The notes: generated from the letters alone by a model not told the origin. A stretch of 64,000 nucleotides of DNA from Oscillospiraceae bacterium (GCA_021203045.1 JAJQBY010000119.1:1927-65926), one strand, 5' to 3'; numbered from the stretch's first letter, positions 171 through 13,852 are shown. Numbers and translations are program-made.

Positions 171-401
171 GCTGTACATCGGCAGAGTGACCGCTTACCA
201 GCGTAAAAGCGAAAGCAAGGGAAAATCCGGGAATATCCCGGAATTTTTTGACTGAAAAAAGTTTTTTCCAGGCTTACGCTTGATGTACTGTTGACAAAAG
301 ATGTATACAATACGATCAACAAGGAATACCCATTAAAATGTCACGATGAGAGGAGAGAGCACAGGGAACTACCGGGTTTTCTGGTGCGAGAGGAGCGCTT
401 C

Positions 402-1265
402 ATGAACATTCTCTATTGTGGGGACAAAAATATACAGGAGGGTCTGCTGCTGTCCGTCCTATCCCTGTGCAGGACGGTGCAGGAGGCGCTGCATGTTTAC
501 GTCCTGACCATGTACTGTCAGCAGGGAGAAAAGACTTACCTTCCAGTGACAGATCAGGCGATCGCCTTTCTGGATATGCAGGTCAAAAAGCATGACTGTG
601 ACAGCTTTGTGAAAAAGCTGGATGTGACGGACCTTTTTATCGCCGATACGCCGGAGGCAAATCTTGCTACCCGTTTTACTGCTGGCTGCATGCTCCGACT
701 GTATGCGGATCTGGTGCCGGAGCTGCCGGACAGAGTGCTTTATCTGGACTATGATGTCATATGCCGCCGGGACTGCACAGACTTTTATGCCCAGGATCTG
801 TCCTACCCTGAAAAAAAACGTGGAGCGGGGCAGGAGGGACTTGAATATGAGCTGGCCGGAGTGCTGGACTATTACGGACGTTTCTTCTTCCGCAATCGCC
901 CACTGCACATGGACTATCTAAATTCCGGCGTACTGCTGCTGAACCTGAAGGAAATACGAAAGACTGGCCTTTTTGAAAAGTGCCGCACCCGCTGCCGGGA
1001 GAAGGAGATGTTCATGCCCGACCAGTCGGCGATCAATAAGCTGTGCATGCGGAAAAAGATATGCCCTCGCCGATTCAATGAGCAGCGTATTCTGAAGGAC
1101 GACACCGTGCTTCAGCATTTCACTACCAGCTTCCGGTTTTTCCCCTGGTTCCACGTCCTCTGTGTCAAGCCATGGCAGGTGGACCAGATGCACGAAAAGC
1201 TGAAACTTCATGAATATGACAGCCTGTTAGATGAATTCCTACAGCTGAAGCCACAACTATATTAA
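402..1265 (+). CDS. Glycosyltransferase family 8 (LPS/lipooligosaccharide glycosyltransferase-like)
   Basis: MNILYCGDKN... N-terminus typical of GT8, DxD motif in YLDYDVI, NSGVLLLNL motif. Start moved to the internal ATG at 402; the 291 start adds a non-homologous extension. Confidence 0.75.
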   Translation: MNILYCGDKNIQEGLLLSVLSLCRTVQEALHVYVLTMYCQQGEKTYLPVTDQAIAFLDMQVKKHDCDSFVKKLDVTDLFIADTPEANLATRFTAGCMLRLYADLVPELPDRVLYLDYDVICRRDCTDFYAQDLSYPEKKRGAGQEGLEYELAGVLDYYGRFFFRNRPLHMDYLNSGVLLLNLKEIRKTGLFEKCRTRCREKEMFMPDQSAINKLCMRKKICPRRFNEQRILKDDTVLQHFTTSFRFFPWFHVLCVKPWQVDQMHEKLKLHEYDSLLDEFLQLKPQLY

Positions 1266-1281
1266 GGAGAAGAAAAACAGC

Positions 1282-2244
1282 ATGACTCAGGAGAAACCTA
1301 TTATTCCCATTTTTTTCACCATCGATAACGGCTATGCCCCTTGTCTGGGGGTAGCATTGGCGTCCATGAAGGCCAATGCTTCCCGTGATTATCAATATCG
1401 GATTCATATCCTTCACCAGGAGCTGACAGCGGAAAATATCGCAAAGCTGTCCTCCATCGGCGAGGACTGGTTCCAGGTGCATTTCGAGGAAATGAAGGAG
1501 GGGCTGGAGAGCATCACCGACCGCAAGGAAAACCGTCTTCGGTGCGACTACTTCACCATGACCATCTACTTCCGACTGTTCATACCGGAGATGTTCCCCG
1601 AATATGATAAGGGTATCTACATAGACAGCGACATCGTCGTGCCGGGAGATATCTCCCGCCTGTACAACATCCAGTTGGGGGACAATCTTTTGGGCGCCTG
1701 CCCAGATCATTCGGTGTCGGAGATCCCGGAGTTTGCTCATTATATAGAGGAGTCCACGGGTGTGAACCGTTATAAATACATAAATTCCGGAATATTGCTG
1801 ATGAATCTGGCTGAAATGCGAAAATGCCGTATGACGGAGCATTTTCTCCATCTTCTGAATACCTATCATTTTGACAGCATCGCACCGGACCAGGACTATA
1901 TAAATGCTATGTGTTATGGACGCATTCATTTTCTGGATGAAGAATGGGATGCCATGCCCAACAAACAGAAGGAGCCTATGGCTCATCCCAGCCTGATACA
2001 CTATAACCTGTTCGATAAGCCCTGGTGCTACGACGACGTGCAGTACGAGGACTATTTCTGGCAGTATGCCAGAGAGAACGTCTATTATCAGGAGCTTCTG
2101 GAGATCAAACGGAATTATTCCGATGAACAGAAGAAATCCGACATGGAATGTCTGGAAAATATGCTGACAAACGCCATGCGGATACCCAATAATCCGGTGA
2201 CCTTTAAAAAGATACACGAAAGTGAAGGAACGATACGTTTATGA
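1282..2244 (+). CDS. Glycosyltransferase family 8
   Basis: IPIFFTIDNGYAPCLGVALASM, DxD in YIDSDIVV, NSGILLMNL, HYNLFDKPW; a paralog of the preceding gene. Confidence 0.8.
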   Translation: MTQEKPIIPIFFTIDNGYAPCLGVALASMKANASRDYQYRIHILHQELTAENIAKLSSIGEDWFQVHFEEMKEGLESITDRKENRLRCDYFTMTIYFRLFIPEMFPEYDKGIYIDSDIVVPGDISRLYNIQLGDNLLGACPDHSVSEIPEFAHYIEESTGVNRYKYINSGILLMNLAEMRKCRMTEHFLHLLNTYHFDSIAPDQDYINAMCYGRIHFLDEEWDAMPNKQKEPMAHPSLIHYNLFDKPWCYDDVQYEDYFWQYARENVYYQELLEIKRNYSDEQKKSDMECLENMLTNAMRIPNNPVTFKKIHESEGTIRL

Positions 2245-3113
2245 TCTTCGGAGGAGAGAAAGATCAAGTCATTGATAATATCCGCGCCGCTGCAGGCCGG
2301 GGAGAATTTCACGTCAAGGTCGAGGTAGGCGACCCCGAGCTGACAGAGGAACAGAAGTCCTCGCTCGTGCGGGAATTCTGGGAAAAACAGCAGCGGCCAC
2401 GGTACTGCTTTTGCAACCGTATAGCGCGGCTCATAGAGAATACTGCGGCAAAGCTGGTGAATGGTTCAACTCAGATAGAGGGATTGGAAAATCTGAAGGG
2501 CATTACCGGCGGCGCGGTCATAACCAGCAATCACTTTAATCCAGTGGACAATACCGCCATATTCACCATGGTGAAAAAGACCGGGCGGAAAAGGCTTTTC
2601 ATCGTAAGCCAGGAGAGCAATCTGGCCATGACAGGGCTTTTCGGCTTTCTAATGAATTATGCAGATACTGTCCCCATGACGGCCGATCCGGACTATCTGG
2701 CAAATACCTTCATGAAAAATATATCTGATCTTCTGGATAGCGGAAACTGGGTGATGATATATCCGGAGCAGGAGATGTGGTTCAATTACCGCAAGCCCCG
2801 CCCACCCAAACGGGGAGCCTATTACTATGCTGCCAAATGCGGTGTGCCGGTTTTGTCATGCTTTGTGGAGATCGTTGACCTGCCGGAGAAGGAAAAAAAT
2901 CGGGACGACTTTTATCAGGTTCGGTATATTGTTCATGTGCTGCCGCCGGTTTACCCTCAGGAGGGCCAAAACGTACGGCAGAACAGCATTGCCATGATGG
3001 AAAAAGATTATGAGCAGAAACGCGCCGCCTATGAGAAGGCCTACGGCAAGCCGTTGACCTACGATTTTGAAGACGGCGATATCGCCGGATGGATTCCTCC
3101 GGCGGCCAGGTAG
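2241..3113 (+). CDS. Lysophospholipid (1-acyl-sn-glycerol-3-phosphate, PlsC-like) acyltransferase family protein
   Basis: HxxxxD acyltransferase motif in ITSNHFNPVDN, downstream IYPEQE block. ATGA start/stop overlap with the upstream GT8 gene. Confidence 0.7.
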   Translation: MIFGGEKDQVIDNIRAAAGRGEFHVKVEVGDPELTEEQKSSLVREFWEKQQRPRYCFCNRIARLIENTAAKLVNGSTQIEGLENLKGITGGAVITSNHFNPVDNTAIFTMVKKTGRKRLFIVSQESNLAMTGLFGFLMNYADTVPMTADPDYLANTFMKNISDLLDSGNWVMIYPEQEMWFNYRKPRPPKRGAYYYAAKCGVPVLSCFVEIVDLPEKEKNRDDFYQVRYIVHVLPPVYPQEGQNVRQNSIAMMEKDYEQKRAAYEKAYGKPLTYDFEDGDIAGWIPPAAR

Positions 3114-3131
3114 AAAGAGGGAATTTCAGAT

Positions 3132-6100
3132 ATGCAGCCGGATAACGAGGAATTAAGGCTGGGGATAGATGTTGGTTCTACTACGGTAAAGCTGGCTGTG
3201 ACGGAAAGCGGCAGTGGGAAAATGCTGTATTCCTGCTATTACCGCCATAACGCCCGTCAGGCAGAGACGGTAGAGCAGCTGCTGGGTCTGTTGGAGGAGC
3301 AATTCCCCGGCAGACGCTTTCGGACGGCGGTGTGCGGCTCCGGCGGCAAGCCGGTGGCAGAGCGGCTGGGCGTCCATTATATTCAGGAGGTAGTAGCGAA
3401 CGCCGCTGCCGTCAGTACCTGGTATCCCCAGGCCCGTACGGCGATTGAACTGGGCGGCCAGGATGCCAAGATCATTTTTTTCCACTTTGATGAAAAGACA
3501 GAAAAGCTGGTCGCCTCCGATATGCGCATGAACGGAAGCTGCGCCGGCGGTACCGGAGCCTTCATCGATGAAATAGCAAAGCTGCTGAATATCGAGACCA
3601 CGGAATTTGAGTCTCTGGCAGCTAAGGGGACAACAGTTTTTGATATATCCGGCCGATGCGGTGTCTTTGCCAAGACGGATATCCAGCCTCTGCTGATACA
3701 GGGCGCCTCACACGAGGACGTGGCGCTTTCAGTCTTTCACGCCATCGCCAGGCAGACCATCGGCGGTCTGGCTCAGGGGCTTGAGATCGCTCCGCCGGTG
3801 GTGTTCGAGGGGGGACCGCTCACCTTTAATCCCACTCTGATACGGGTCTTTGGAGAGCGGCTTCAGCTCACGCCGGAGCAGATCATTATCCCGGAGCACC
3901 CGGAGACCATCGTGGCCTTCGGCACTGCGATTGCCATCGACCGCATATTCGCTCCCACAGATGACGAGTGTGCTATGCTGACCGCCGGTGAGCTGCGCGA
4001 GAGACTGCAAAATACCGCAGCCTCGGCCTCTGCTGTCAGCCATACAGCGGAGCCGTTTTTCAGGTCGACTCAGGAACGGGACGATTTTATGGCCCGTCAC
4101 GACCGGGAGCTTATGCCTGTTCAGGAACCGACCGGACAGGGGCCGCTGCAGGTGTATCTTGGCATCGATTCCGGCAGTACTACCTCCAAACTGGTGCTTT
4201 TGGACGAGGATGAGCGGGTCATCGACCGCTATTACGCAAACAACAACGGCGAGCCGCTGCGCGTGATAAAGGAGGGCCTGCTGGCCCTGGCGGACAAATA
4301 TGAGCGCATGGGCCGGCCTTTGGAGATTCTGGGTCTTGGCACCACCGGCTATGGCGAAAAGCTCTTTGCCCGGGCCCTGGGTGCGGATTATCATGTGGTG
4401 GAAACTGTGGCCCACGCCAAGGGCTGTTTGCAGTATTTCCCGAATGCCTCGTTCCTGCTGGACATCGGCGGTCAGGACATGAAGGCCATTTGGCTGAACG
4501 ACGGCATTATCACAAACATCATGCTGAATGAGGCCTGCTCCTCCGGATGCGGCTCATTCCTGGAAAATTTTGCCTCCAACCTGGGCATGCCGGTAGAGGA
4601 GATCGCTGCCGCCGCCTTCCGCTCGGAAAACCCCGCCTCCCTGGGCAGTCGATGCACAGTGTTCATGAACAGCACTATTATTAACGAACAGCGGGACGGC
4701 AAACTTCCGGACGACATCATGGCTGGACTGTGCCGTTCTATTATCGAAAATGTTTTCACAAAGGTAGTCCGCATCGCCAACAAGGATGAGTTGGGAGATC
4801 ATGTAGTCGTCCAGGGCGGCACATTCCGCAACCGGGCGGTTCTGCGGGCATTGGAAGAATATCTGGGCCGGGAGGTATCCCTGGCGCCGTATCCCGGAGA
4901 GATGGGCGCACTGGGCGCGGCTCTGCTCGTGAAGCAGCAGATAGAGCATGAGGGCTATGCCAACGGGGAGTCCACCTCCTTTATCGGACTGAACGGCCTG
5001 CGGGACTTTGACTATATTACCCGCAATGGAGACCGCTGTCCCGGCTGTGCCAACCATTGCAGCCGCACGGTCATGCTGTTTTCCACCGGCGGGGCCTGGG
5101 TCACGGGCAACCGCTGCGAGCGGGGCGCCACCGTAGACGATGAATACCCCGGCGAGAAGAAGGCAGGGGAGAGCCAGCCCAAGCCTCAGACAGAGAAGAC
5201 GGTGGAACCCGCTCCTGATTTGTTTCTAAAACGGGAAAAACTGCTGTTTGAGCTGTATCCCAGTGAACCGGTCCGGGAGGCGCAGGGCCAGACCATCGGC
5301 CTGCCCCGCGTGCTGGAATTTTGGGACAGTATGCCCTTCTGGAGCACCTTTTTCCGTGCTCTTGGATATAGTACAAAATTCTCTCATCCCAGCGGCCGTA
5401 AGCTCTATGAGCAGGGCATCACCTATGTTGCCTCGGATACCATCTGCTTCCCGGCAAAGCTTGCCCATGGCCATGTAATGGACCTGGCAGAGCAGGGGGT
5501 AGATCGCATTTTCATGCCCTATGTGATGCACATGCCGCCGGAGGGAAAGGATAAGCTTAGTCCCTACGTCTGCTCAGTAGTCATGGGTTACCCCATGGTG
5601 GTGCGTAATTCCCAGACTCCGGAGGAGCGATATCATATTCCCTTTGATACGCCCGTGTTCCACTGGTTTACGGAAAAGGACAGAGAAAAGCAGATATGCC
5701 ATTACGCCGTTGAGACCTTGGGCGCCACCGAAAAGCAGGCCGAAGCTGCCTTTGCCCAGGGGAAAAAGGCTCTGGCATCCTTCCGGCAGACCCTGCGGGA
5801 TGAGGCGTCGCAGATATTGGACAAAGTCCGTCAGGAAAACGGCTTTGCGGTCGTCCTGGCAGGAAGGCCGTATCATTCAGATTCCTTCGTCTGTCATGGT
5901 CTTTCCAAGCTGTTTGCAAATCAGGGTATCCCCGTTCTGCCGGTGGACAGCTTGCCGGGCCTTGAGAAGGTGGATCTGCATAACACCCGCATAGAAATTA
6001 CGAACGACTTCCATACCCGTATGCTGGCCGGAGCCATGATCGCCGCCCGGGAGGAAAGCCTGGAATATGTCCAGCTCGTCAGCTTCGGCTGCGGTCATGA

Positions 6101-7634
6101 TGCGGTGCTGTCGGATGAGATCATCCGTATTCTTACAGAGAGCGGACAGAAGTCTCCCCTTGTTCTGAAGCTGGATGAGAGTGACGCCGCAGGCTCTCTG
6201 GCGATCCGGGTACAGTCTTTTATTGAGACCGTCCATATTCGCCGTAAGCTGGCGGCGGAGCGGCGTTCCGCCGAAAACGTGCTTGAACACGCAGCCTCCG
6301 AGCCGCTGACATCCAGCGGGAGCACGGGAGGCATCCGGCTCCGTCGTCGCCGGAGTCAGACCACAGACCCGGCGCTCCAGGTCTATCATAGCCAATATTT
6401 CCGGGAGTTGCCCCCACCCAGTCCGGCAAAATTTCTGCCGGGGGACCGGAAAAAGCGAACGCTTCTCCTGCCAAATATCACCGGAGAGGCGGCAGTGCTG
6501 CTGTGCGCTCTGCTGGAAAAGGAAAACTTCATTGTGAAGTCGGTCCCTATCGGCGGCATAGAGCAGATACGACTGGGGAAAAAATACGTGCATAACGACA
6601 TCTGCTTCCCGGCTCAAATGGTCATCGGCGAGCTGATCGGCGAGCTGAAGCGCGGGAATTATAATCAGGACGAGGTAGCTGTCGGTATGGTAAAGTTCCA
6701 ATGCGACTGCCGCATGTCCCACTATGCGGGCCTCTTGCGAAAGGGATTGGACGCTGCCGGGTTTGATGGTGTGCCGGTGCTGACCACAGATGTGAACGAC
6801 ACAAAGGATATGCACCCCGGTGTGGCCCTGCTCGGCCTGAGCGCCGTGCTGGGGGCTGTGTGGGGCTTTATGATGCTGGATATCATGACCGAGATTGTCC
6901 GTAAGATCCGGCCCTACGAAATCAATCCCGGCGAGACGAACCGTGTTTATCATCAGTGTGTGGAAAACATATCCCAGGCGCTGAAGGAGGGCATGTCACC
7001 GGCGCGGCGGGTGTTCGAGCAGTGCATAGATAGTCTGGCAGCCATCCCCTATGACCGGTCCAGTCTGAAGCCCCGTGTGTTCGTTACCGGTGAGCTGCTT
7101 GTGACCTATCACCCCGGCTCAAACTTTCACATTGAGGAATATATCGAGCAAAACGGCATGGAGACTGTGTTTCCCCGCATCACCGACCAGCTCCGCAAGG
7201 ATTTCCAGGCCACGGGCGCAGAGATAAAGGATTGCCATGCCAATATCCCGCCCTATCCCTTCCTGGTCAGCGGCCTGTTCGACTATGTGCAGCGTTCCCT
7301 GGAAAAGGTGGCGGCCCGTCATCCTTTGTTTGAAAAAGGGCATTCGCCTAAGGAAATGTATGACGGCGTCAGCGATATCATCCCGGAGCCCCTGAGCTGC
7401 GGCGAGGGCTGGCTGATGGCGGCCGAGATTGCCCGATACGCCAAAGAGGGCGTCAGGAGCTTTATCATCCTTCAGCCCTTTGGCTGCCTGCCTAACCACA
7501 TCTGCGGCCGCGGCACTATCAAGAAGCTGAAGACCCGCTATCCGGACATTCAGATACTCCCCTTAGACCTCGATCCGGACACCAGCTTTGCCAACGTGGA
7601 AAACCGGCTGCAAATGCTGATTATGAATCATTGA
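3132..7634 (+). CDS. Giant BadF/BadG/BcrA/BcrD-type ATPase fusion: two ASKHA 'CoA-substrate-specific enzyme activase' modules plus DUF2229-like C-terminal domains
   Basis: Two ASKHA phosphate-1 motifs (LGIDVGSTTVKLAV; YLGIDSGSTTSKLVLLD). Two cluster-helix Cys motifs (NGSCAGGTGAFIDE; NEACSSGCGSFLEN). Then GLPRVLEFWDSMPFW, typical of the activase-associated domain. A single uninterrupted 1500-codon ORF. Confidence 0.8.
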   Translation: MQPDNEELRLGIDVGSTTVKLAVTESGSGKMLYSCYYRHNARQAETVEQLLGLLEEQFPGRRFRTAVCGSGGKPVAERLGVHYIQEVVANAAAVSTWYPQARTAIELGGQDAKIIFFHFDEKTEKLVASDMRMNGSCAGGTGAFIDEIAKLLNIETTEFESLAAKGTTVFDISGRCGVFAKTDIQPLLIQGASHEDVALSVFHAIARQTIGGLAQGLEIAPPVVFEGGPLTFNPTLIRVFGERLQLTPEQIIIPEHPETIVAFGTAIAIDRIFAPTDDECAMLTAGELRERLQNTAASASAVSHTAEPFFRSTQERDDFMARHDRELMPVQEPTGQGPLQVYLGIDSGSTTSKLVLLDEDERVIDRYYANNNGEPLRVIKEGLLALADKYERMGRPLEILGLGTTGYGEKLFARALGADYHVVETVAHAKGCLQYFPNASFLLDIGGQDMKAIWLNDGIITNIMLNEACSSGCGSFLENFASNLGMPVEEIAAAAFRSENPASLGSRCTVFMNSTIINEQRDGKLPDDIMAGLCRSIIENVFTKVVRIANKDELGDHVVVQGGTFRNRAVLRALEEYLGREVSLAPYPGEMGALGAALLVKQQIEHEGYANGESTSFIGLNGLRDFDYITRNGDRCPGCANHCSRTVMLFSTGGAWVTGNRCERGATVDDEYPGEKKAGESQPKPQTEKTVEPAPDLFLKREKLLFELYPSEPVREAQGQTIGLPRVLEFWDSMPFWSTFFRALGYSTKFSHPSGRKLYEQGITYVASDTICFPAKLAHGHVMDLAEQGVDRIFMPYVMHMPPEGKDKLSPYVCSVVMGYPMVVRNSQTPEERYHIPFDTPVFHWFTEKDREKQICHYAVETLGATEKQAEAAFAQGKKALASFRQTLRDEASQILDKVRQENGFAVVLAGRPYHSDSFVCHGLSKLFANQGIPVLPVDSLPGLEKVDLHNTRIEITNDFHTRMLAGAMIAAREESLEYVQLVSFGCGHDAVLSDEIIRILTESGQKSPLVLKLDESDAAGSLAIRVQSFIETVHIRRKLAAERRSAENVLEHAASEPLTSSGSTGGIRLRRRRSQTTDPALQVYHSQYFRELPPPSPAKFLPGDRKKRTLLLPNITGEAAVLLCALLEKENFIVKSVPIGGIEQIRLGKKYVHNDICFPAQMVIGELIGELKRGNYNQDEVAVGMVKFQCDCRMSHYAGLLRKGLDAAGFDGVPVLTTDVNDTKDMHPGVALLGLSAVLGAVWGFMMLDIMTEIVRKIRPYEINPGETNRVYHQCVENISQALKEGMSPARRVFEQCIDSLAAIPYDRSSLKPRVFVTGELLVTYHPGSNFHIEEYIEQNGMETVFPRITDQLRKDFQATGAEIKDCHANIPPYPFLVSGLFDYVQRSLEKVAARHPLFEKGHSPKEMYDGVSDIIPEPLSCGEGWLMAAEIARYAKEGVRSFIILQPFGCLPNHICGRGTIKKLKTRYPDIQILPLDLDPDTSFANVENRLQMLIMNH

Positions 7635-7653
7635 AAAAGCATATTAACAACAA

Positions 7654-7681
7654 AAGGCAGGATGAAAATCTTGCCTTTTTT
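7654..7681 (+). terminator. Rho-independent terminator after the activase gene
   Basis: aaggcagga / tcttgcctt stem (one G-U pair), 6-nt loop, then a T-run. Confidence 0.7.
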
Positions 7682-7737
7682 GCTTGTCGTCATTATACTA
7701 TAATCATAGTCGGTATATGAGACAGGAGGGAAAACCC

Positions 7738-8244
7738 ATGACAATTTCGGAAATCATGCGAAGGATGATATCCTTTTCACAGGGGAATATCCATGATATA
7801 GACCATCTTATCCGGGTATGGGCCTATGCCAGGACTATAGGGGAGCTGGAAGGACTTGATGAACACACTCAGTTCATTACAGAGGCCGCCGCCATTACCC
7901 ATGATATCGCATGCCCCCTGTGCCGGGTGAAATACGGCAACACCAACGGCAAATACCAGGAGAGAGAAGGCGCTGTCCTGGCAGCGGATTTTTTACAGGA
8001 TACGGGTATGGCGCAGGAGGACATAGACCGCGTAGCCTATCTGGTAGGACATCACCACACCCCTGCCGGGATAGACGGGCCTGACTACCAGATTCTGATA
8101 GAGGCTGACTATATCGCCAACGCGGAGGAGAACAGTTACCCTGCTCAGAATATAGAGCAGTTTCTCGGATGCATATGCAAAACGGCCTCCGGTGAGGCGA
8201 TGATACGGGAGATATTTTCTGAAACGCTGCAAAAGAAGGAGTAG
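7738..8244 (+). CDS. HD-domain metal-dependent phosphohydrolase (small, stand-alone)
   Basis: H...HD...HD pattern (IHDIDHLIRV ... ITHDIACP ... VGHHHT). AGGAGGG RBS before the ATG at 7738. Confidence 0.75.
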   Translation: MTISEIMRRMISFSQGNIHDIDHLIRVWAYARTIGELEGLDEHTQFITEAAAITHDIACPLCRVKYGNTNGKYQEREGAVLAADFLQDTGMAQEDIDRVAYLVGHHHTPAGIDGPDYQILIEADYIANAEENSYPAQNIEQFLGCICKTASGEAMIREIFSETLQKKE

Positions 8245-8247
8245 CCC

Positions 8248-10413
8248 ATGGATACAGAAGCTACAGAGAACATACGCCAGTCAAAGGATATTCCGTATCG
8301 CTGCGGTGACTGCGAGCCATGCGTTGATGATTCGGGCTACATTTTCATCAGCTATGCCCATGTTGACCGTCCGATGGTACAGAGGATTATCAACCTGCTG
8401 GACAGGCGTGGATTCCGCATCTGGTACGACAGAGGGATATCCGGCGGGACGCCATGGCGCGATGTGTTAAAGGATAGAATGAATCACAGTCAGTCGTGTC
8501 TGGCGTTTTTATCCGGCGGGGTCGAACAGCGCCATGTCATCATGGACGAATTGACATGGGCGATAGAGCGTGCGAAAAGTGATGAAAATTATCAGCTCGT
8601 ATTCGTGCTGCTGGATAAGGTGTCCCCATCTCTGTTTCCGGGGAAGATTCAGGACTATCTGAAGGAATGCCAATCCATCAATCTGGAAAAAATGGGCGGC
8701 CTGACGGAGCGGCTGGCCAATGCGCTGCTCTCCATCTGCTGGCCCCATGCTATCGTTGATGAGAACTACCGCAGGGCCATGGGCTATGCTCCCTGGAACC
8801 CGCAGCATGTCGATGAAGGGGAGGTAACGAAGGGCATTGCAGAGCAGGAGGGTGAGCTTAGCTACGTCTATCCCCGGGCGCGGCTCGTTCCGGCAGAGGC
8901 AGCATCATGCGGAAGAACATTCCGTTTTTATAAAATAAGCCCTGACTCCGTAGACCCTGATACGGTCCATCCCATGTGCATAGATAATCAGTGGGTACCG
9001 GAGGATATGTATACCCGCAGGGATTTTCAAACAGACGGTCTCAGGTGCCCCAGCGTCTCTGCAGATATCCAGAGCCGCCAGCGCCGGGAAATATACCAGG
9101 CCCTGCTGCACAACTGGCAGATGGTGGTGAACCGTGCCCATCTGATGAATAGCCAGGTGTTTTCTGCATGGTATATGCAGGAGGGGACGGAGGATTATGA
9201 AGCCTTTGCCGCGCTTGTGTCCAACGGTTCCATTCTGGCCTATCTGATGGAGGAGAAGGACCCCGCCGAGCATCCGCCGTTCGATACATCAAAACAACAG
9301 CTTGCAATGTGGCAGAAATTCTGCGAAAGATATTCGGTCTCCTGCCTGCGTTTCGACTGGGATAATGAGGAGAGCAACGCATACGAGACCAAGCGGCTGC
9401 TTGGCTATTCCTTCCAAAACTTCTGCCTTACCACGGCAAATGACGCCTACCGGCAGGAGGAGCTGGCCGCGGCATTTAACATTCGGGACCGTGATGCTTT
9501 TGCGGCCCAGTGGCAGAAGATACAGGAGGATGTTCAGGCCTTTGCAGACGAACAGAGCGCGAAGCCCCTTGCGGAACGCCGGCCATACAGCCGAAGCCGG
9601 TTCTATCAGACCTTTATCTGCGATCTTTCAGACGGCAGGCAGGTAGACGACGGAGTGCTGGATATGAAAAAAGGGCCGTTCGTTCGTGAATTGAAGCAGA
9701 TCGCGGATTTTGAATACGGCATGAATTTTGCCGCCGCCATGAATATACAGCCGCTGGTGCCGGGGGATTCAAGGCTGAAAAACTTTGCGTTCTCTGAACG
9801 CATCATGGAACACGCAGGCCGCGAGATCGGAACGGATGAACTGACCTTTGCTGTGACCGAGTTTGTCCCCCGGTTCCTGCGGAAGCAGGTTTTATATGCA
9901 GAAAATCTGTCTCTGTCCCTGAGTCGTATCCACCAGATCAGGCAAACGGATGGGTGGAGGAGCTATATGAATTCCATCACCGCCGGCCGCCGGCGCGCCG
10001 GACTGGACCAGCTGGACCTGCTGGATACAGTGCCGGTCTGGGAAAAATATCAAACGCTCATGGAGACCGTTCAGACGATGTTTCCGAATGAAAGCTGGCA
10101 GCGCCGACAGGGGAGCCTTTCGATGATTTACCGCTTCGGCGAGCAAACATTGATATCCGTGTACCGTCATGGCGCCGCTTCGATCGAGATAGACGACAGA
10201 GGCGTAAAGGACAGGGAACGGATGCAGAAAAAAAGCGTCCTCACAGTCGACTATGTTTGCGGCGATGTGCTGGCCGGAGAGATGAAAAACGGCCTTCTAG
10301 CCGAGATACGGCTGTTCCAGGGGCTGACCCGCGACAGAGGCGCAGATGCCTGCGAGAAGCTTCTGGGTAAACTAAAAAGCATTCATTATCGGGGAGATGT
10401 ATATGAAAGCTGA
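8248..10413 (+). CDS. TIR-domain protein with a large C-terminal region of unknown function
   Basis: N-terminal TIR_2-like signature YIFISYAHVDRPMVQRIINLLDRRGFRIWYDRGI...W...CLAFLS...VIMDELTWAIE (residues ~30-150). The remaining ~570 aa show no motif I recognise: no Walker A, SIR2, Macro or nuclease signature. AAGGAG RBS lies inside the 3' end of the HD gene. Confidence 0.8.
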   Translation: MDTEATENIRQSKDIPYRCGDCEPCVDDSGYIFISYAHVDRPMVQRIINLLDRRGFRIWYDRGISGGTPWRDVLKDRMNHSQSCLAFLSGGVEQRHVIMDELTWAIERAKSDENYQLVFVLLDKVSPSLFPGKIQDYLKECQSINLEKMGGLTERLANALLSICWPHAIVDENYRRAMGYAPWNPQHVDEGEVTKGIAEQEGELSYVYPRARLVPAEAASCGRTFRFYKISPDSVDPDTVHPMCIDNQWVPEDMYTRRDFQTDGLRCPSVSADIQSRQRREIYQALLHNWQMVVNRAHLMNSQVFSAWYMQEGTEDYEAFAALVSNGSILAYLMEEKDPAEHPPFDTSKQQLAMWQKFCERYSVSCLRFDWDNEESNAYETKRLLGYSFQNFCLTTANDAYRQEELAAAFNIRDRDAFAAQWQKIQEDVQAFADEQSAKPLAERRPYSRSRFYQTFICDLSDGRQVDDGVLDMKKGPFVRELKQIADFEYGMNFAAAMNIQPLVPGDSRLKNFAFSERIMEHAGREIGTDELTFAVTEFVPRFLRKQVLYAENLSLSLSRIHQIRQTDGWRSYMNSITAGRRRAGLDQLDLLDTVPVWEKYQTLMETVQTMFPNESWQRRQGSLSMIYRFGEQTLISVYRHGAASIEIDDRGVKDRERMQKKSVLTVDYVCGDVLAGEMKNGLLAEIRLFQGLTRDRGADACEKLLGKLKSIHYRGDVYES

Positions 10414-11095
10414 GAATACGATGCTCCGGGACATAGAAGAAAAAGGGCGTTCGAAGTCTTGGCAGGAATATCTTTCGCTGATGGAGGAGCGTCCGGAACT
10501 GTTCCGGCAGAATGACGGACTGCGGATTATAACAGCTTTGGCGGATATATGTGCCTACGAGCGGCGCACAGGACAGATCATCGGCGTCCGGTATCGAAGC
10601 CCCTATTATATGCTGGTGCAGGACCTGGTGCAAAATGCTCAGGGGGAGGTATTTTTCTACGACCGATTGCTGCCTGCGGTCCCGGCCGGCGCAGTGGCCA
10701 TGCTTCCAGTCTATCAGGGTAAATATGTTCTGCTGCATCAGTTTCGCCATGCTATCCGGGATTATCAATACGGATTTCCCCGCGGTTTTGGAGAGCCGGG
10801 CCTGTCTCCGGAGGAGAATGCACAGAAGGAGCTGCGTGAGGAGTTGGGAGGCCGGGCAGCCCGGATAGAGCTTTTGGGAACGATATACCCGGACAGCGGA
10901 TTGACATCCACCGGCGTTTCCGTGTATCGGTGTGACATGGAAAGCGTGAGCCTGCAGGCGGATCACGAGCAGATAGAGAATATTGTTTTCCTGTCCTCTG
11001 ATGAACTGCAGCAGTGGGTGCGGGACGGAAAAATCACGGATAGCTTCACCCTGGCTGCCATATTATTATTAAAAGCAAAGGAAACAAAGCTATGA
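10397..11095 (+). CDS. Nudix hydrolase, ADP-ribose pyrophosphatase-like
   Basis: Nudix box GFGEPGLSPEENAQKELREELGG (nt 10784..10852), downstream YPDSGLTS and C-terminal ITDSFTLAAILL resembling NudF-type ADPRases. Overlaps the TIR gene by 17 nt; an alternative ATG at 10403 also overlaps. Confidence 0.75.
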   Translation: MYMKAENTMLRDIEEKGRSKSWQEYLSLMEERPELFRQNDGLRIITALADICAYERRTGQIIGVRYRSPYYMLVQDLVQNAQGEVFFYDRLLPAVPAGAVAMLPVYQGKYVLLHQFRHAIRDYQYGFPRGFGEPGLSPEENAQKELREELGGRAARIELLGTIYPDSGLTSTGVSVYRCDMESVSLQADHEQIENIVFLSSDELQQWVRDGKITDSFTLAAILLLKAKETKL

Positions 11096-12261
11096 AAAAG
11101 AAGGAATCCTGGATTATTGCGGCCATCCTGGCCCTGGAAGTGATGCAGATGGGCGCCAATGGTATCTCGCCCATTATTGCTGAGCTGACAGCGGCATTTC
11201 CCCAGGCCGGAACATCGACTGTGCAGTTTTTGATGACCTTTCCCAGCCTGATTGTTATTCCCGTCAGTCTTATGGCGGGCAAGCTGGCGGAACGGGTGCC
11301 GAAAAAATATCTGACCGCCCTGGGCAGCGGCCTTTTCTGTGCCAGCGGCCTGTTAAGTCTGGCATTTCACGGGTCCCTGCCGGTGCTGTACGCCTGGGCG
11401 GTATTGATGGGGGCGGGGATCGGCCTGGTGATTCCCATCGCTACCAGCCTTATTACGGATTGCGTGAGCGCCGAACGGCAGGACAGCGTTATGGGATGGC
11501 TGTCCAGCGCTGCCAGCGTGGGCGCTATGCTGATGACCTTTTTTGGCGGCCTGCTGGCAGAGATACATTGGAGCCTGAATTATCTGGTCTATTTGGTCGC
11601 CCTGCCGGGACTGCTGCTGTCTCTCCTCTGTCTGCCAAGGGACGCAGGACGGCAGCCTATAGCGGAAGGGGAGCCCACCGTCGCACAGGCAAAGCCCAGG
11701 TATGGCCCGCTGGCCTTCTGCTGTGTTCTGGCTCTGCTGGCCACGCTGCTGTATAATACCTTCCCGGTAAATATGAGCCTGTATCTGGCGGAAAAGAGCC
11801 TCGGTACCTCGGCGCAGGCCGGCACGGCTACGACGATCCTGCTGCTGATGGGCGTTGTCGGCGGGATACTCTATGGCCGCGCTGTCAGTCGGGTAGGGCG
11901 GTATGTATACGTCATCGGCTTTGCCCTGATGGTTGCGGGCCAGGTCATATGCGGCACTGCCGCCGGGCTCTGGCAGGTATACATTGGCTGCGTGGTGGGC
12001 GGCGCATCCCTGGGCTTTGTGATGGCCCGCGTGTTGACAGATGCTGCAGCCTGCTCCGGGACAAACGTGGCCTTCGGCATGGCGCTTATCACGGCCTTTG
12101 CCAACCTGGGCGGCTTCTGCGCTCCGGTACTGACAGCGGCGGCCCGACTTATTTCCGGCAGCGAAGCTGTCGGCCCCCGTTTCCTGCTGAGCGCCGCCTG
12201 CGCCGCTGTTATGGCCGTGGTGATGTGTATCGTTGTCCGCCGGAAGCACGCCCGTGGGTAA
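11092..12261 (+). CDS. MFS transporter
   Basis: About 12 hydrophobic segments and a typical MFS layout. ATGA overlap with the Nudix gene. Confidence 0.7.
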   Translation: MKKKESWIIAAILALEVMQMGANGISPIIAELTAAFPQAGTSTVQFLMTFPSLIVIPVSLMAGKLAERVPKKYLTALGSGLFCASGLLSLAFHGSLPVLYAWAVLMGAGIGLVIPIATSLITDCVSAERQDSVMGWLSSAASVGAMLMTFFGGLLAEIHWSLNYLVYLVALPGLLLSLLCLPRDAGRQPIAEGEPTVAQAKPRYGPLAFCCVLALLATLLYNTFPVNMSLYLAEKSLGTSAQAGTATTILLLMGVVGGILYGRAVSRVGRYVYVIGFALMVAGQVICGTAAGLWQVYIGCVVGGASLGFVMARVLTDAAACSGTNVAFGMALITAFANLGGFCAPVLTAAARLISGSEAVGPRFLLSAACAAVMAVVMCIVVRRKHARG

Positions 12262-13030
12262 GCCCCGGGTCGCCGTATGCTATGGACTGGCAATGCTTAT
12301 TGCACTATCCGGCTGTAACAGGGGAGAGCTTGCTAACACAGGAGAAATCACCCATGTGATCATGCCTGCCGTTACGGAAGTAAATGTGGAAGCGTCGGAA
12401 CAGCCAGAGGCGGATGTGCCTTCACTTGATTTTTCCTCGGCGGAAAATCGGGACGGAGAACTTGTATTCACTGTTACCGGCGCAGCACTGATAGAGGCTT
12501 TCAACGCCGAATATGGGGAGGTCTTCCTGCCGGAGATGGACGCCTGGCAGCAAACAGTCTGCCAGACGGCTCTCAATTCGCCTTATGAAACCGTGTGGTT
12601 CCGATTTCAGATGGTGGAAGGAGTGACAATGTCCCCCGCCGTCTATCTGTATACCCCATCGGACAGCGATCTTCTCGGTGAGATCGTCCTAGTCTTCGAC
12701 CATCACGGATATGCGGATTGGGCCTATTCTCTGTATGCGAGAGTGAGCGGCCAAATGCTGGCGCTGCTGCTTCCGGACATGGATGCAGAGGCATATGTCG
12801 GACTTTTTGAAACGCTGTATGACTTGGCCATTCATGATGACGCGTGCTACCTGGGGACGCTGCTGAATGGAGAGATAACACCGCCGCTGCTCTATTGGCA
12901 GGACGATGTGGGTCTTTACCCCTGTTACGCCGGGGGGCTGGTGTATATCTGCGCTGTGCCCGTGACAGCGGAATATATGGAAGCTCTGGCGGCCCGAAAT
13001 ATAGAACTGATTGCAATTGAACAAGACTGA
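12254..13030 (+). CDS. Putative lipoprotein, function unknown
   Basis: A GTG start at 12254 gives (M)GKPRVAVCYGLAMLIALSGC with lipobox LSGC. It overlaps the MFS stop. The maximal ORF starts at 12233. Confidence 0.5.
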   Translation: MGKPRVAVCYGLAMLIALSGCNRGELANTGEITHVIMPAVTEVNVEASEQPEADVPSLDFSSAENRDGELVFTVTGAALIEAFNAEYGEVFLPEMDAWQQTVCQTALNSPYETVWFRFQMVEGVTMSPAVYLYTPSDSDLLGEIVLVFDHHGYADWAYSLYARVSGQMLALLLPDMDAEAYVGLFETLYDLAIHDDACYLGTLLNGEITPPLLYWQDDVGLYPCYAGGLVYICAVPVTAEYMEALAARNIELIAIEQD

Positions 13031-13417: not shown

Positions 13418-13489
13418 AATGAACAGGTCGTGCAGTGCTTTGTTTGTACGAACAAGAGCTCAATCAGAATCTGTGGAGAAAATTATATT

Positions 13490-13852
13490 GTGAAAATAAA
13501 ACAAGTAGAAAAAAACTATATCGTTTGCGCTGTTATTCAAAGCGATGATTTGGTAATTGCGGATGCTCAATCCGCGCTGGATCTGTTGATGACGGTCAGA
13601 TACGAAAATGGGACGAAAAATATTGTGATTGATAAGCGACTGATCGCAGAGGAATTTTTTATTCTCAGTACGGGTCTTGCGGGCGAAATCCTGCAAAAGT
13701 TTGTCAACTATGGCGGTCGCATTGCAATATTCGGCAATTATTCGCGTTATACAAGCAAACCTCTGAAGGATTTTATTTACGAGAGCAATCAGGGCAAAGA
13801 CGTATTCTTTGCTGCAACAGAAGATGAAGCGATAGATATGCTTACTCGCTAA
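13490..13852 (+). CDS. DUF4180-like protein
   Basis: VKIKQVEKN...SALDLLMTVRYE...LAGEILQKFVNYGGRIAIFGNYS...LKDFIYESNQGKDVFF matches my recollection of DUF4180. GTG start at 13490 with a GGAGA RBS. Visibly lower GC than the surroundings. Confidence 0.55.
   Translation: MKIKQVEKNYIVCAVIQSDDLVIADAQSALDLLMTVRYENGTKNIVIDKRLIAEEFFILSTGLAGEILQKFVNYGGRIAIFGNYSRYTSKPLKDFIYESNQGKDVFFAATEDEAIDMLTR

Follow-up and report, generated by a model that had tools for sequence, protein, structure and literature searches.

A TIR-X/Nudix gene pair inserted into an Oscillospiraceae operon and its place in an apparently undescribed family of X-Nudix modules

Do three closely packed genes in the genome of an Oscillospiraceae bacterium form a single functional unit, and if so, what might it do? 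The genes lie at positions 7738-11095 of a 64,000-nucleotide (nt) stretch of DNA that is referred to here, as a whole, as the window; all window coordinates are counted from its first letter. In a preliminary description they were read as one cassette of an HD phosphohydrolase, a TIR protein, and a Nudix hydrolase. Analysis of the locus and its relatives points to a different unit. The gene for the TIR protein, here called TIR-X, and the Nudix gene form a pair that was inserted into a resident operon, and most of TIR-X consists of a domain (X) of ~500 residues without a detectable relative in the libraries searched. The pair belongs to an apparently undescribed, broad family of likely conflict or defence type, whose constant core is X plus a Nudix hydrolase of the ADP-ribose pyrophosphatase (ADPRase) type. 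It is read here as a defence-type X-Nudix module with a TIR effector, at a probability of roughly 0.55. The features of the pair are as follows:

8217..11067, plus strand: inserted segment of 2,851 nt, relative to the related genomes L028 and L029, delimited by blastn against L028; the only genes inside are TIR-X and Nudix
8248..10413, plus strand: TIR-X protein, 721 amino acids (aa), NCBI MCD8117314.1
8320..8787, plus strand: TIR domain, about residues 25-180 (Pfam TIR_2, 5.6e-17)
8860..10392, plus strand: X domain, about residues 205-715, no match in the libraries searched
10403..11095, plus strand: ADPRase-clade Nudix hydrolase (Pfam NUDIX, 7.3e-11)

The gene pair and its insertion site

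Three co-oriented, tightly joined open reading frames (ORFs) are present as had been described, and their domains are confirmed by Pfam. The HD ORF begins with an ATG at 7738, preceded at a distance of 8 nt by AGGAGG (7724-7729), and ends with a TAG at 8242-8244. The TIR-X ATG at 8248 follows 3 nt past this stop, with AAGGAG at 8236-8241 inside the HD 3′ end, and the gene terminates with a TGA at 10411-10413. If translated from an ATG at 10397, the Nudix ORF comprises 232 aa and overlaps the 3′ end of TIR-X by 17 nt, in agreement with the preliminary description; an alternative ATG at 10403, with GGGGAG ahead of it, yields 230 aa and is the start implied by the 230-aa NCBI protein. At its other end, the Nudix stop codon overlaps the ATG of an MFS transporter gene in the sequence ATGA (11092-11095), and therefore close packing does not mark off a three-gene unit. 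The features flanking the pair are the following:

7652..7679, plus strand: terminator-like hairpin, a 12-pair stem followed by TTGCTTG; backbone, outside the module
7738..8244, plus strand: HD phosphohydrolase, 168 aa (Pfam HD, 7.8e-8); resident backbone gene
11092..12261, plus strand: MFS transporter (Pfam MFS_1, 8.6e-32); backbone gene, outside the module

The extent of the insert is seen by comparison with two Oscillospiraceae metagenome-assembled genomes (MAGs), L028 and L029, in which the HD protein is 86% identical to that of the window. Both have the gene order of the window, i.e., two GT8 glycosyltransferases, an acyltransferase, a CoA-enzyme activase (1500 aa), HD, MFS, a glyoxalase, and DUF4180, but without the TIR and Nudix genes, and MFS starts 28 nt after HD. 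In blastn alignments, window 399-8216 corresponds to L028 1651-9479 (84.5% identity) and window 11068-12243 to L028 9494-10669 (82.7% identity), so that 14 nt in L028 occupy the place of window 8217-11067. The left junction lies inside the last codons of HD, where the insert provides a new 8-residue HD tail, the stop codon, and the ribosome-binding site of TIR-X. The right junction lies just 5′ of the MFS ribosome-binding site; the Nudix ORF extends into the backbone and terminates at the start of MFS. HD-MFS is a resident operon into which TIR-X and Nudix were inserted, and the apparent translational coupling of HD to TIR results from where the insert landed. As a general caution, translational coupling to neighbours such as HD and MFS can merely reflect an insertion site.

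The pair is horizontally acquired, a conclusion that is supported by the empty site and not by base composition. The preliminary description had relied on low GC in these genes relative to about 67% in infB, a value that came from one 60-nt line; the whole infB gene has a GC content of 0.580. The insert (0.539) compares with a mean of 0.585 (sd 0.036) for equal-sized segments across the 64 kb, 11% of which have a GC content equal to or below that of the insert. Lower values than that of the insert are found for HD (0.511), which is resident, and for the glycosyltransferases upstream (0.47-0.50). GC composition was accordingly set aside as non-discriminating. The earlier proposal of a horizontal insert between a terminator and core genes holds for TIR-X and Nudix and fails for HD, which is resident. 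A terminator-like hairpin was indeed found upstream of HD, at 7652-7679; it is placed 3′ of the 1500-aa CoA-enzyme activase gene, in a region that is syntenic in L028.

Other loci likewise separate HD from the pair. Homologues of HD, MFS, and ORF5 do not occur within 8 kb of the pair in any of 27 other TIR-Nudix loci, and conserved co-occurrence of HD, TIR, and Nudix, as expected for a three-component cassette, is thus missing. A search with the HD protein gives 5,553 homologous clusters (at 90% identity), many of them ~70% identical, compared with just 16 full-length relatives of TIR-X in the same kind of search, and a more distant HD homologue has unrelated housekeeping surroundings. The HD gene nearest to another pair is of the YfbR type and is 2.4 kb away (L015). 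A 180-aa gene located 5′ of TIR in L001 was considered as a candidate HD and ruled out, as it is not an HD homologue. The HD-TIR arrangement of the window is shared by L030, a 96.5%-identical strain.

At the left (GCAAAAGAAGGAG) and right (GCAAAGGAAAC) borders of the insert lies a possible direct repeat that resembles the ribosome-binding site of MFS at the empty site; being imperfect and too short, it does not lend itself to interpretation. The window copy has no mobile-element genes on its flanks.

Several further indels were seen nearby. The activase gene (window 3132-7634) encodes a 1500-aa single chain that combines two BcrAD_BadFG ATPase domains with DUF2229 and is of equal length in related genomes. 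Window 12244-13012 is a second insertion by comparison with L028, which has 71 nt in this place; it concerns an ORF at 12233-13030 that encodes a 265-aa protein without a Pfam match and with a lipoprotein-like N-terminal signal (…LIALSGC…). Most of this second insertion (window 12454-12967) is also absent from strain L030. The DUF4180 gene (window 13430-13852) has the lowest GC content in the region (0.40; 0.42 at third codon positions, GC3) and is absent in the near-identical L030 but present in L028. Several independent indels make the stretch from the CoA activase to rimP-nusA-infB a small variable region.

Domains and distribution of the X-Nudix family

Twenty-seven loci with TIR-X homologues (30-43% identity) were fetched. 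These homologues are followed by an orthologous Nudix gene of ~220 aa (34-50% identity), and the two genes mostly overlap. Nudix lies directly 3′ of TIR-X in all 26 loci with downstream DNA; the remaining one, L024, stops at a contig edge and was left out of this count. The close family is rare: it was found in 12 of 185,579 species-representative genomes, all of them gut or rumen Clostridia (Oscillospiraceae, Ruminococcus, and Mogibacterium). The pair behaves as an accessory element, with a patchy distribution, presence or absence among relatives, and a nonsense codon in one sister strain. The latter is L030, where the gene at 1009-3174 (= window 8248-10413) carries a CGG-to-TGA change at residue 383 (window 9394) and is consequently annotated as two fragments, MCD7769041.1 and MCD7769042.1. 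It is possible that this represents pseudogenisation of a costly gene, or a consensus error in the MAG.

At least seven of ~17 distinct contexts have defence or mobile-element neighbours. For example, L003 contains Mob_Pre, SLFN/AlbA_2, AIPR, an Eco57I-type methylase, and a large TIR protein; L004 a TIR-STAND protein, NADAR-DarT1, and TraG; L006 a DUF4062-nSTAND1 protein, a TIR_2 protein, and an integrase; and L012-L014 a recombinase, AbiH, and a TIR_2 protein. A second TIR gene is located nearby in L019 and L021, and an integrase in L011. A location in defence islands, proposed as a check in the preliminary description, is thus seen for this part of the contexts; in the remainder, the window included, the pair is surrounded by housekeeping genes.

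Some of the neighbours are of interest in themselves. In L006 (1063-7551, minus strand), a 1172-aa DUF4062-nSTAND1 protein is encoded together with a 258-aa TIR_2 protein and a 724-aa protein with a faint NPHP3_N match. DUF4062 proteins are reported to be TIR-like NADases of a defence system named Swarozyc (2026 preprint, 10.64898/2026.05.01.722283). Other genes near pairs include DSPc (L003, 10916-11440), NADAR-DarT1 (L004, 5176-5811, minus strand), LMWPc (L018, 11226-11678), and the YfbR-type HD (L015, 9953-10519). A variable third gene, related to phosphatases or ADP-ribose, was considered on this basis and dropped, since the pattern across these four loci is too irregular.

The protein MCD8117314.1, from an Oscillospiraceae MAG, is annotated as a TIR domain-containing protein and nothing more. 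Its Pfam TIR_2 match covers residues 32-135 of 721, and both the TIR_2 signature and a Glu in the catalytic position, as noted in the preliminary description, are borne out. This residue, E101 of the motif VIMDELTWA (codon 8548-8550), is invariant across 16 homologues and aligned with the motif Glu of TLR and TIR-STING sequences. In the AlphaFold2 (AF2) model of full-length TIR-X (pLDDT 84.5), E101 sits in helix 96-111, which follows strand 83-88 (beta-C). When the full-length model was searched with Foldseek, only TIR domains were matched (SPARTA TIR-APAZ, Cat1, RUN1, SARM1, and AbTir), many of them at a probability of 1.00, and the closest solved TIR by a PDB sequence profile is Cat1. In both predicted fold and conserved candidate catalytic Glu, the domain appears to fit the TIR-domain NAD+ glycohydrolases.

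Roughly 580 of the 721 residues of this "TIR" protein are not TIR, which had passed unremarked. Modelled alone, X gives a confident AF2 prediction (pLDDT 88.9, pTM 0.88) with an alpha/beta-rich core and a beta-rich C-terminal subdomain. It yielded no match in Pfam, NCBIfam, PADLOC, or a PDB sequence profile, and a Pfam scan of 35 standalone X proteins at E-values up to 5 revealed no recurrent family. Foldseek searches with the X-only model gave best E-values of 0.6 in the PDB and 0.31 in BFVD. The domain has a number of invariant polar residues (DNQW, Q..E..LLHNWQ..VNRA, CLRFDW, SN.YE, Y.R..FY, ELKQ..D..Y, and REI..DEL), several of which are at beta-strand ends of the core, as read from the secondary structure of the model. 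Such residues would fit either a ligand pocket or an active site.

An exhaustive search with an X-only profile returned 442 proteins as 50%-identity representatives, with E-values under 1e-30 for 231. Architectures were read in the best 150 of the 442. About 50 of these are TIR-X proteins, and four others (P0150, P0152, P0155, and P0168; sequence checked) are single-chain TIR-X-Nudix fusions. Another ~95 have no TIR according to a family-derived TIR profile and are mostly standalone proteins of ~510 aa; some TIR-less X proteins carry N-terminal Metallophos, DUF1822, or HEAT repeats. Metagenome loci add PNP_UDP_1-X and GT4-conflict-TIR-X architectures. In PADLOC, the PNP_UDP_1 part matches the CBASS "PN-superfamily" effector (1.6e-20) and the Metallophos part a CBASS endonuclease effector (2e-17).

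A scan of metagenome contigs with 12 closer standalone-X sequences produced 73 loci, most of which are from soil. An improved TIR profile found TIR in only three of the 73, and also in L034, a locus obtained from the look-up of P0197. A member of the dedicated Nudix family is located within 1.5 kb of X on the same strand in 17 of 18 assessable loci, i.e., distinct scan loci having at least 1.5 kb on each flank. These partners score E-values of 1e-40 to 1e-55 against the gut-derived profile. In a reverse look-up that began with a distant Nudix homologue in a seemingly housekeeping chromosomal context, the gene 2 nt upstream turned out to encode a standalone X (E 2e-61). Neighbours of X loci include TIR-NB-ARC-TPR (L034 and L050) and NB-ARC-TPR proteins (L039) and HsdM (L056).

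X and Nudix are thus adjacent on the same strand, or fused, in the 26 gut loci, in the 17 metagenome loci, in the four fusion proteins, and in the reverse look-up. The functional pairing of TIR with Nudix that had been suggested is upheld by the same gut loci and fusions. However, the X-Nudix pair is kept where TIR is absent or replaced, and therefore the constant pair is X plus Nudix, with TIR being exchangeable. The earlier logic of one nucleotide generator plus two processors does not survive this comparison: Nudix partners X rather than TIR, and the pair persists with PNP, phosphoesterase, or HEAT-repeat parts.

Some members of the wider family deserve separate mention. In L081 (3919-7569), a 1216-aa fusion of a GT4-conflict glycosyltransferase, TIR, and X is followed by Nudix. 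In L043 (5330-7591, minus strand), genes for Piwi-domain and TPR proteins adjoin a standalone X, whose available flank showed no Nudix. Standalone X proteins (P0197, alignment A8) lack the beta-rich C-terminal subdomain of gut TIR-X and have ~140 differing C-terminal residues, with a hydrophobic stretch (e.g., PIVELIINIAGAVLSIIW) that may represent a membrane-active or transmembrane effector segment.

The Nudix hydrolase also scores with the NCBIfam model for NudE (1.2e-12), but under the cut-offs of both that model (47.7 vs. 169) and the one for NudF (17.1 vs. 248). A profile built from nine Nudix partners matched NudF 5c7t best in the PDB (5e-17), and also several ADPRases, NudE, and NUDT5, with 8wv3 and 1vhg among the closest solved relatives. 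The likeness to NudF-type ADP-ribose pyrophosphatases claimed in the preliminary description is thus sound, and by its closest solved relatives the protein probably belongs to the ADPRase clade. The NudF-like part is preceded by a family-specific N-terminal segment of ~55 residues. The Nudix box (10775-10855) is a variant, G130 x5 L136 x7 K144-E-L-R-E-E-L-G, compared with the canonical Gx5Ex7REUxEExGU; the family consensus is PRGFGExGLSxEENAxKEIxEExG, and the core Glu residues E145, E148, and E149 are invariant. The Glu of Gx5E is replaced by Leu across the wider family. The Arg of REUxEE is replaced by Lys in the gut clade alone, and soil orthologues retain it.

Soil loci can contain up to three paralogues of the dedicated Nudix, often two 5′ and one 3′ of X. 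The 3′ copy retains RELxEE. Far-upstream copies mostly read ELAKEI, in which the first catalytic Glu has become Lys, and some near-upstream copies have Glu changed to Gln. This suggests that the upstream paralogues are pseudo-enzyme subunits. Loci with such flanking paralogues include L035, L050, L062, and L067, and X is there standalone or fused to PNP.

Proposed function and rival explanations

In immune effectors, the constant part is usually a regulatory or sensing domain. A constant module combined with interchangeable CBASS-type effectors corresponds to this usual architecture, and X is therefore read as a regulator of the TIR NADase. We infer from the same comparison a defence role, X as the sensor, and the Nudix substrate and direction of control. 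X would be a regulatory or ligand-sensing module that restrains an N-terminal effector. Here, the effector would be a predicted TIR NAD+ glycohydrolase that retains the catalytic Glu; in other members of the family, its place would be taken by a PNP-type nucleosidase, a calcineurin-like phosphoesterase, or a TIR-NB-ARC-TPR protein encoded nearby. The Nudix hydrolase may serve as an off-switch, or set a threshold, by controlling how much of an ADP-ribose-like NDP-X ligand is available to X. Ring nucleases, which are off-switches in type III CRISPR, offer an analogy. Alternatively, Nudix may make the ligand of X from a precursor. If infection tipped the balance, TIR domains would assemble and NAD+ would be destroyed, resulting in abortive infection. 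The specific role of Nudix is put forward with much lower confidence than the general reading.

Several observations weigh against the defence reading. Around half of the gut loci, among them that of the window, consist of the two genes alone, inserted between housekeeping genes, and the count of defence neighbours is a per-locus tally rather than an enrichment statistic for defence islands. Relatives of X were absent from IMG/VR (searched with two profiles), from GenBank phages, and from PLSDB plasmids. The invariant polar residues at strand ends of the X model would also be compatible with X being an enzyme and not a sensor. Since the Nudix box is non-canonical, both the activity and the substrate of this protein remain predictions. 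Finally, Nudix may act as an off-switch, a signal maker, or a product remover.

This last role underlies an alternative, appealing in its chemistry and close to the preliminary reading, in which the two enzymes work in sequence. TIR would cleave NAD+ to ADP-ribose (ADPR) or an isomer of cyclic ADPR (cADPR), and Nudix would hydrolyse the product to AMP and ribose-5-phosphate, or, in a variant, linearise a cADPR isomer into a pRib-AMP-like molecule as the real signal. Hydrolysis would render the loss of NAD+ irreversible and could starve, for instance, phage ADPR-recycling (NARP1) pathways. Consistent with this idea are the ADPRase clade of the Nudix, the intact catalytic Glu of TIR, and the strict adjacency and occasional fusion of the two. 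Moreover, phages rebuild NAD+ from ADPR (10.1101/2024.02.11.579819), which such processing would counter, and CAAD with its Nudix sets a precedent for clearing an effector product (PMC13276650). Against it, Nudix partners X where TIR is undetected or the effector is PNP, a phosphoesterase, or HEAT, and therefore tracks X and not NAD+ cleavage; nor is a downstream signal receptor conserved in the two-gene gut form. Product processing is thus considered unlikely. Somewhat less weight still is given to an addiction pair in which TIR-X is an NAD+-depleting toxin, neutralised by Nudix through binding or removal of an activating ligand, and the whole is selfish accessory DNA that has no dedicated function against phages. 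The tightly coupled genes with a putative antidote gene located 3′ in the gut form, the patchy distribution and insertion behaviour, and the nonsense mutation in TIR-X of the sister strain would all agree with a toxin-antitoxin system. However, swappable effectors, degenerate Nudix paralogues, and STAND-NTPase neighbours look immune-like and not like a minimal pair, and the window copy is not flanked by mobile-element genes. The distinction is also not a sharp one, since many defence systems are themselves toxin-antitoxin-like.

The two other explanations that can be offered have little in their favour. A housekeeping pair in NAD or ADP-ribose metabolism, without a role in conflict, would be in keeping with the ADPRase-like Nudix and with the several loci among housekeeping genes, but it is improbable for an element present in 12 of 185,579 species that comes and goes between close relatives, carries a TIR NADase domain, swaps effectors shared with CBASS, and has defence-island neighbours. 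Least probable of all is the three-gene signalling cassette with HD as a second nucleotide processor. The 3-nt HD-TIR gap, the ribosome-binding site within the HD 3′ end, and the identical layout in L030 speak for it; as a conserved unit it is refuted by the HD-MFS empty sites, the 27 other loci without an HD homologue, and the size of the HD family (>5,500 clusters).

A broader proposal can be made, tentatively, from the reading of the pair as a defence-type X-Nudix module. X plus Nudix may form the core of widespread, undescribed immune systems in which the two sense or meter an ADP-ribose-like nucleotide, perhaps one that phage counter-defence produces or uses up, and in this way govern a set of interchangeable effectors: a TIR NADase, a PNP nucleosidase, a calcineurin-like phosphoesterase, and linked TIR-STAND proteins. 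On this view, bacterial immunity would count a Nudix hydrolase among its central signalling parts. In plants, Nudix enzymes have proposed roles around TIR signalling, and the module would provide a testable handle on the metering of ADP-ribose-type nucleotides in immunity, a question that also concerns plant TIR pathways. If the pair does act in phage defence, X would be a new sensor or regulatory domain for TIR and other effector-based immunity, and the dedicated Nudix the constant partner of such systems. The family is compact, with two genes in gut Clostridia, and has members in MAGs from the gut and rumen as well as in metagenomes from soil and sediment.

Comparison with known systems

The preliminary description knew of no named system with this gene set, and the searches bear this out. 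PADLOC v2 returned only domain-level TIR matches; it has no model for X or for the dedicated Nudix family, and PADLOC-based annotation would therefore overlook the module. In full-text literature searches, neither a TIR-Nudix nor an X-Nudix system was found described, and to our knowledge more recent catalogues contain no named system in which Nudix is combined with a partner of this kind. Nudix, Macro, and TIR domains have been placed in NAD-ADP-ribose conflict networks in general statements only (PMC9503650, PMC7159879).

The closest parallels are among systems in which an N-terminal effector is fused to a larger regulatory domain, as in TIR-X. These include TIR-SAVED, TIR-STING, and Cap effectors of CBASS, and the CARF-TIR protein Cat1 of type III CRISPR. 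The likeness extends to the effectors, as PADLOC models for CBASS effectors match the same set of TIR, PNP nucleosidase, and calcineurin-like phosphoesterase that is swapped onto X. However, X is neither SAVED, STING, nor CARF, and the PADLOC match to SAVED_TIR spans the TIR part (model positions 9-109 of 404). The X module has no linked cyclase (CD-NTase or Cas10) and only Nudix as its constant partner; neither a CD-NTase nor a pyrimidine cyclase was matched by Pfam or PADLOC, which together with the two-gene composition sets it apart from CBASS and Pycsar.

Thoeris likewise employs a TIR protein in a small operon with an NAD-derived nucleotide logic, and PADLOC gives weak ThsB matches to related TIRs. 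Neither the window nor those related loci that were Pfam-annotated or scanned yielded a ThsA-type gene (SIR2, SLOG, Macro, or transmembrane), and there was no PADLOC match to ThsA. Furthermore, ThsB is a standalone signal synthase, whereas TIR is here fused to X, in the manner of a swappable effector. Structurally, the full-length model is closest to the TIR-APAZ proteins of SPARTA/SPARSA (8i87, 8qlo), in which TIR is joined to a large partner domain that is not catalytic, but the match is limited to ~200 TIR columns with a query-normalised TM-score of 0.17, and X alone has no match to APAZ. No Argonaute or Piwi gene adjoins the gut-type loci, as would be expected for SPARTA.

A Nudix hydrolase is a partner of a defence effector in type III CRISPR, where CAAD (Cad1) converts ATP to ITP and Nudix converts ITP to IMP (PMC13276650), i.e., both act on nucleotides of the same pathway. 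That system has CARF, a deaminase, and a CRISPR context, all of which are missing from the X module, in which an ADPRase-clade Nudix is found across different effectors. The ADPRases NudF, NudE, and NUDT5 share the three core box Glu residues with the dedicated Nudix. The N-terminal segment of ~55 residues, the Leu and Lys changes in the box, and the degenerate paralogues are peculiar to the latter. The module is thus excluded from Thoeris, CBASS, Pycsar, SPARTA, and type III CRISPR. It is read as an effector-based, nucleotide-centred conflict system, the new parts of which would be the regulatory domain X and a Nudix hydrolase as the constant partner.

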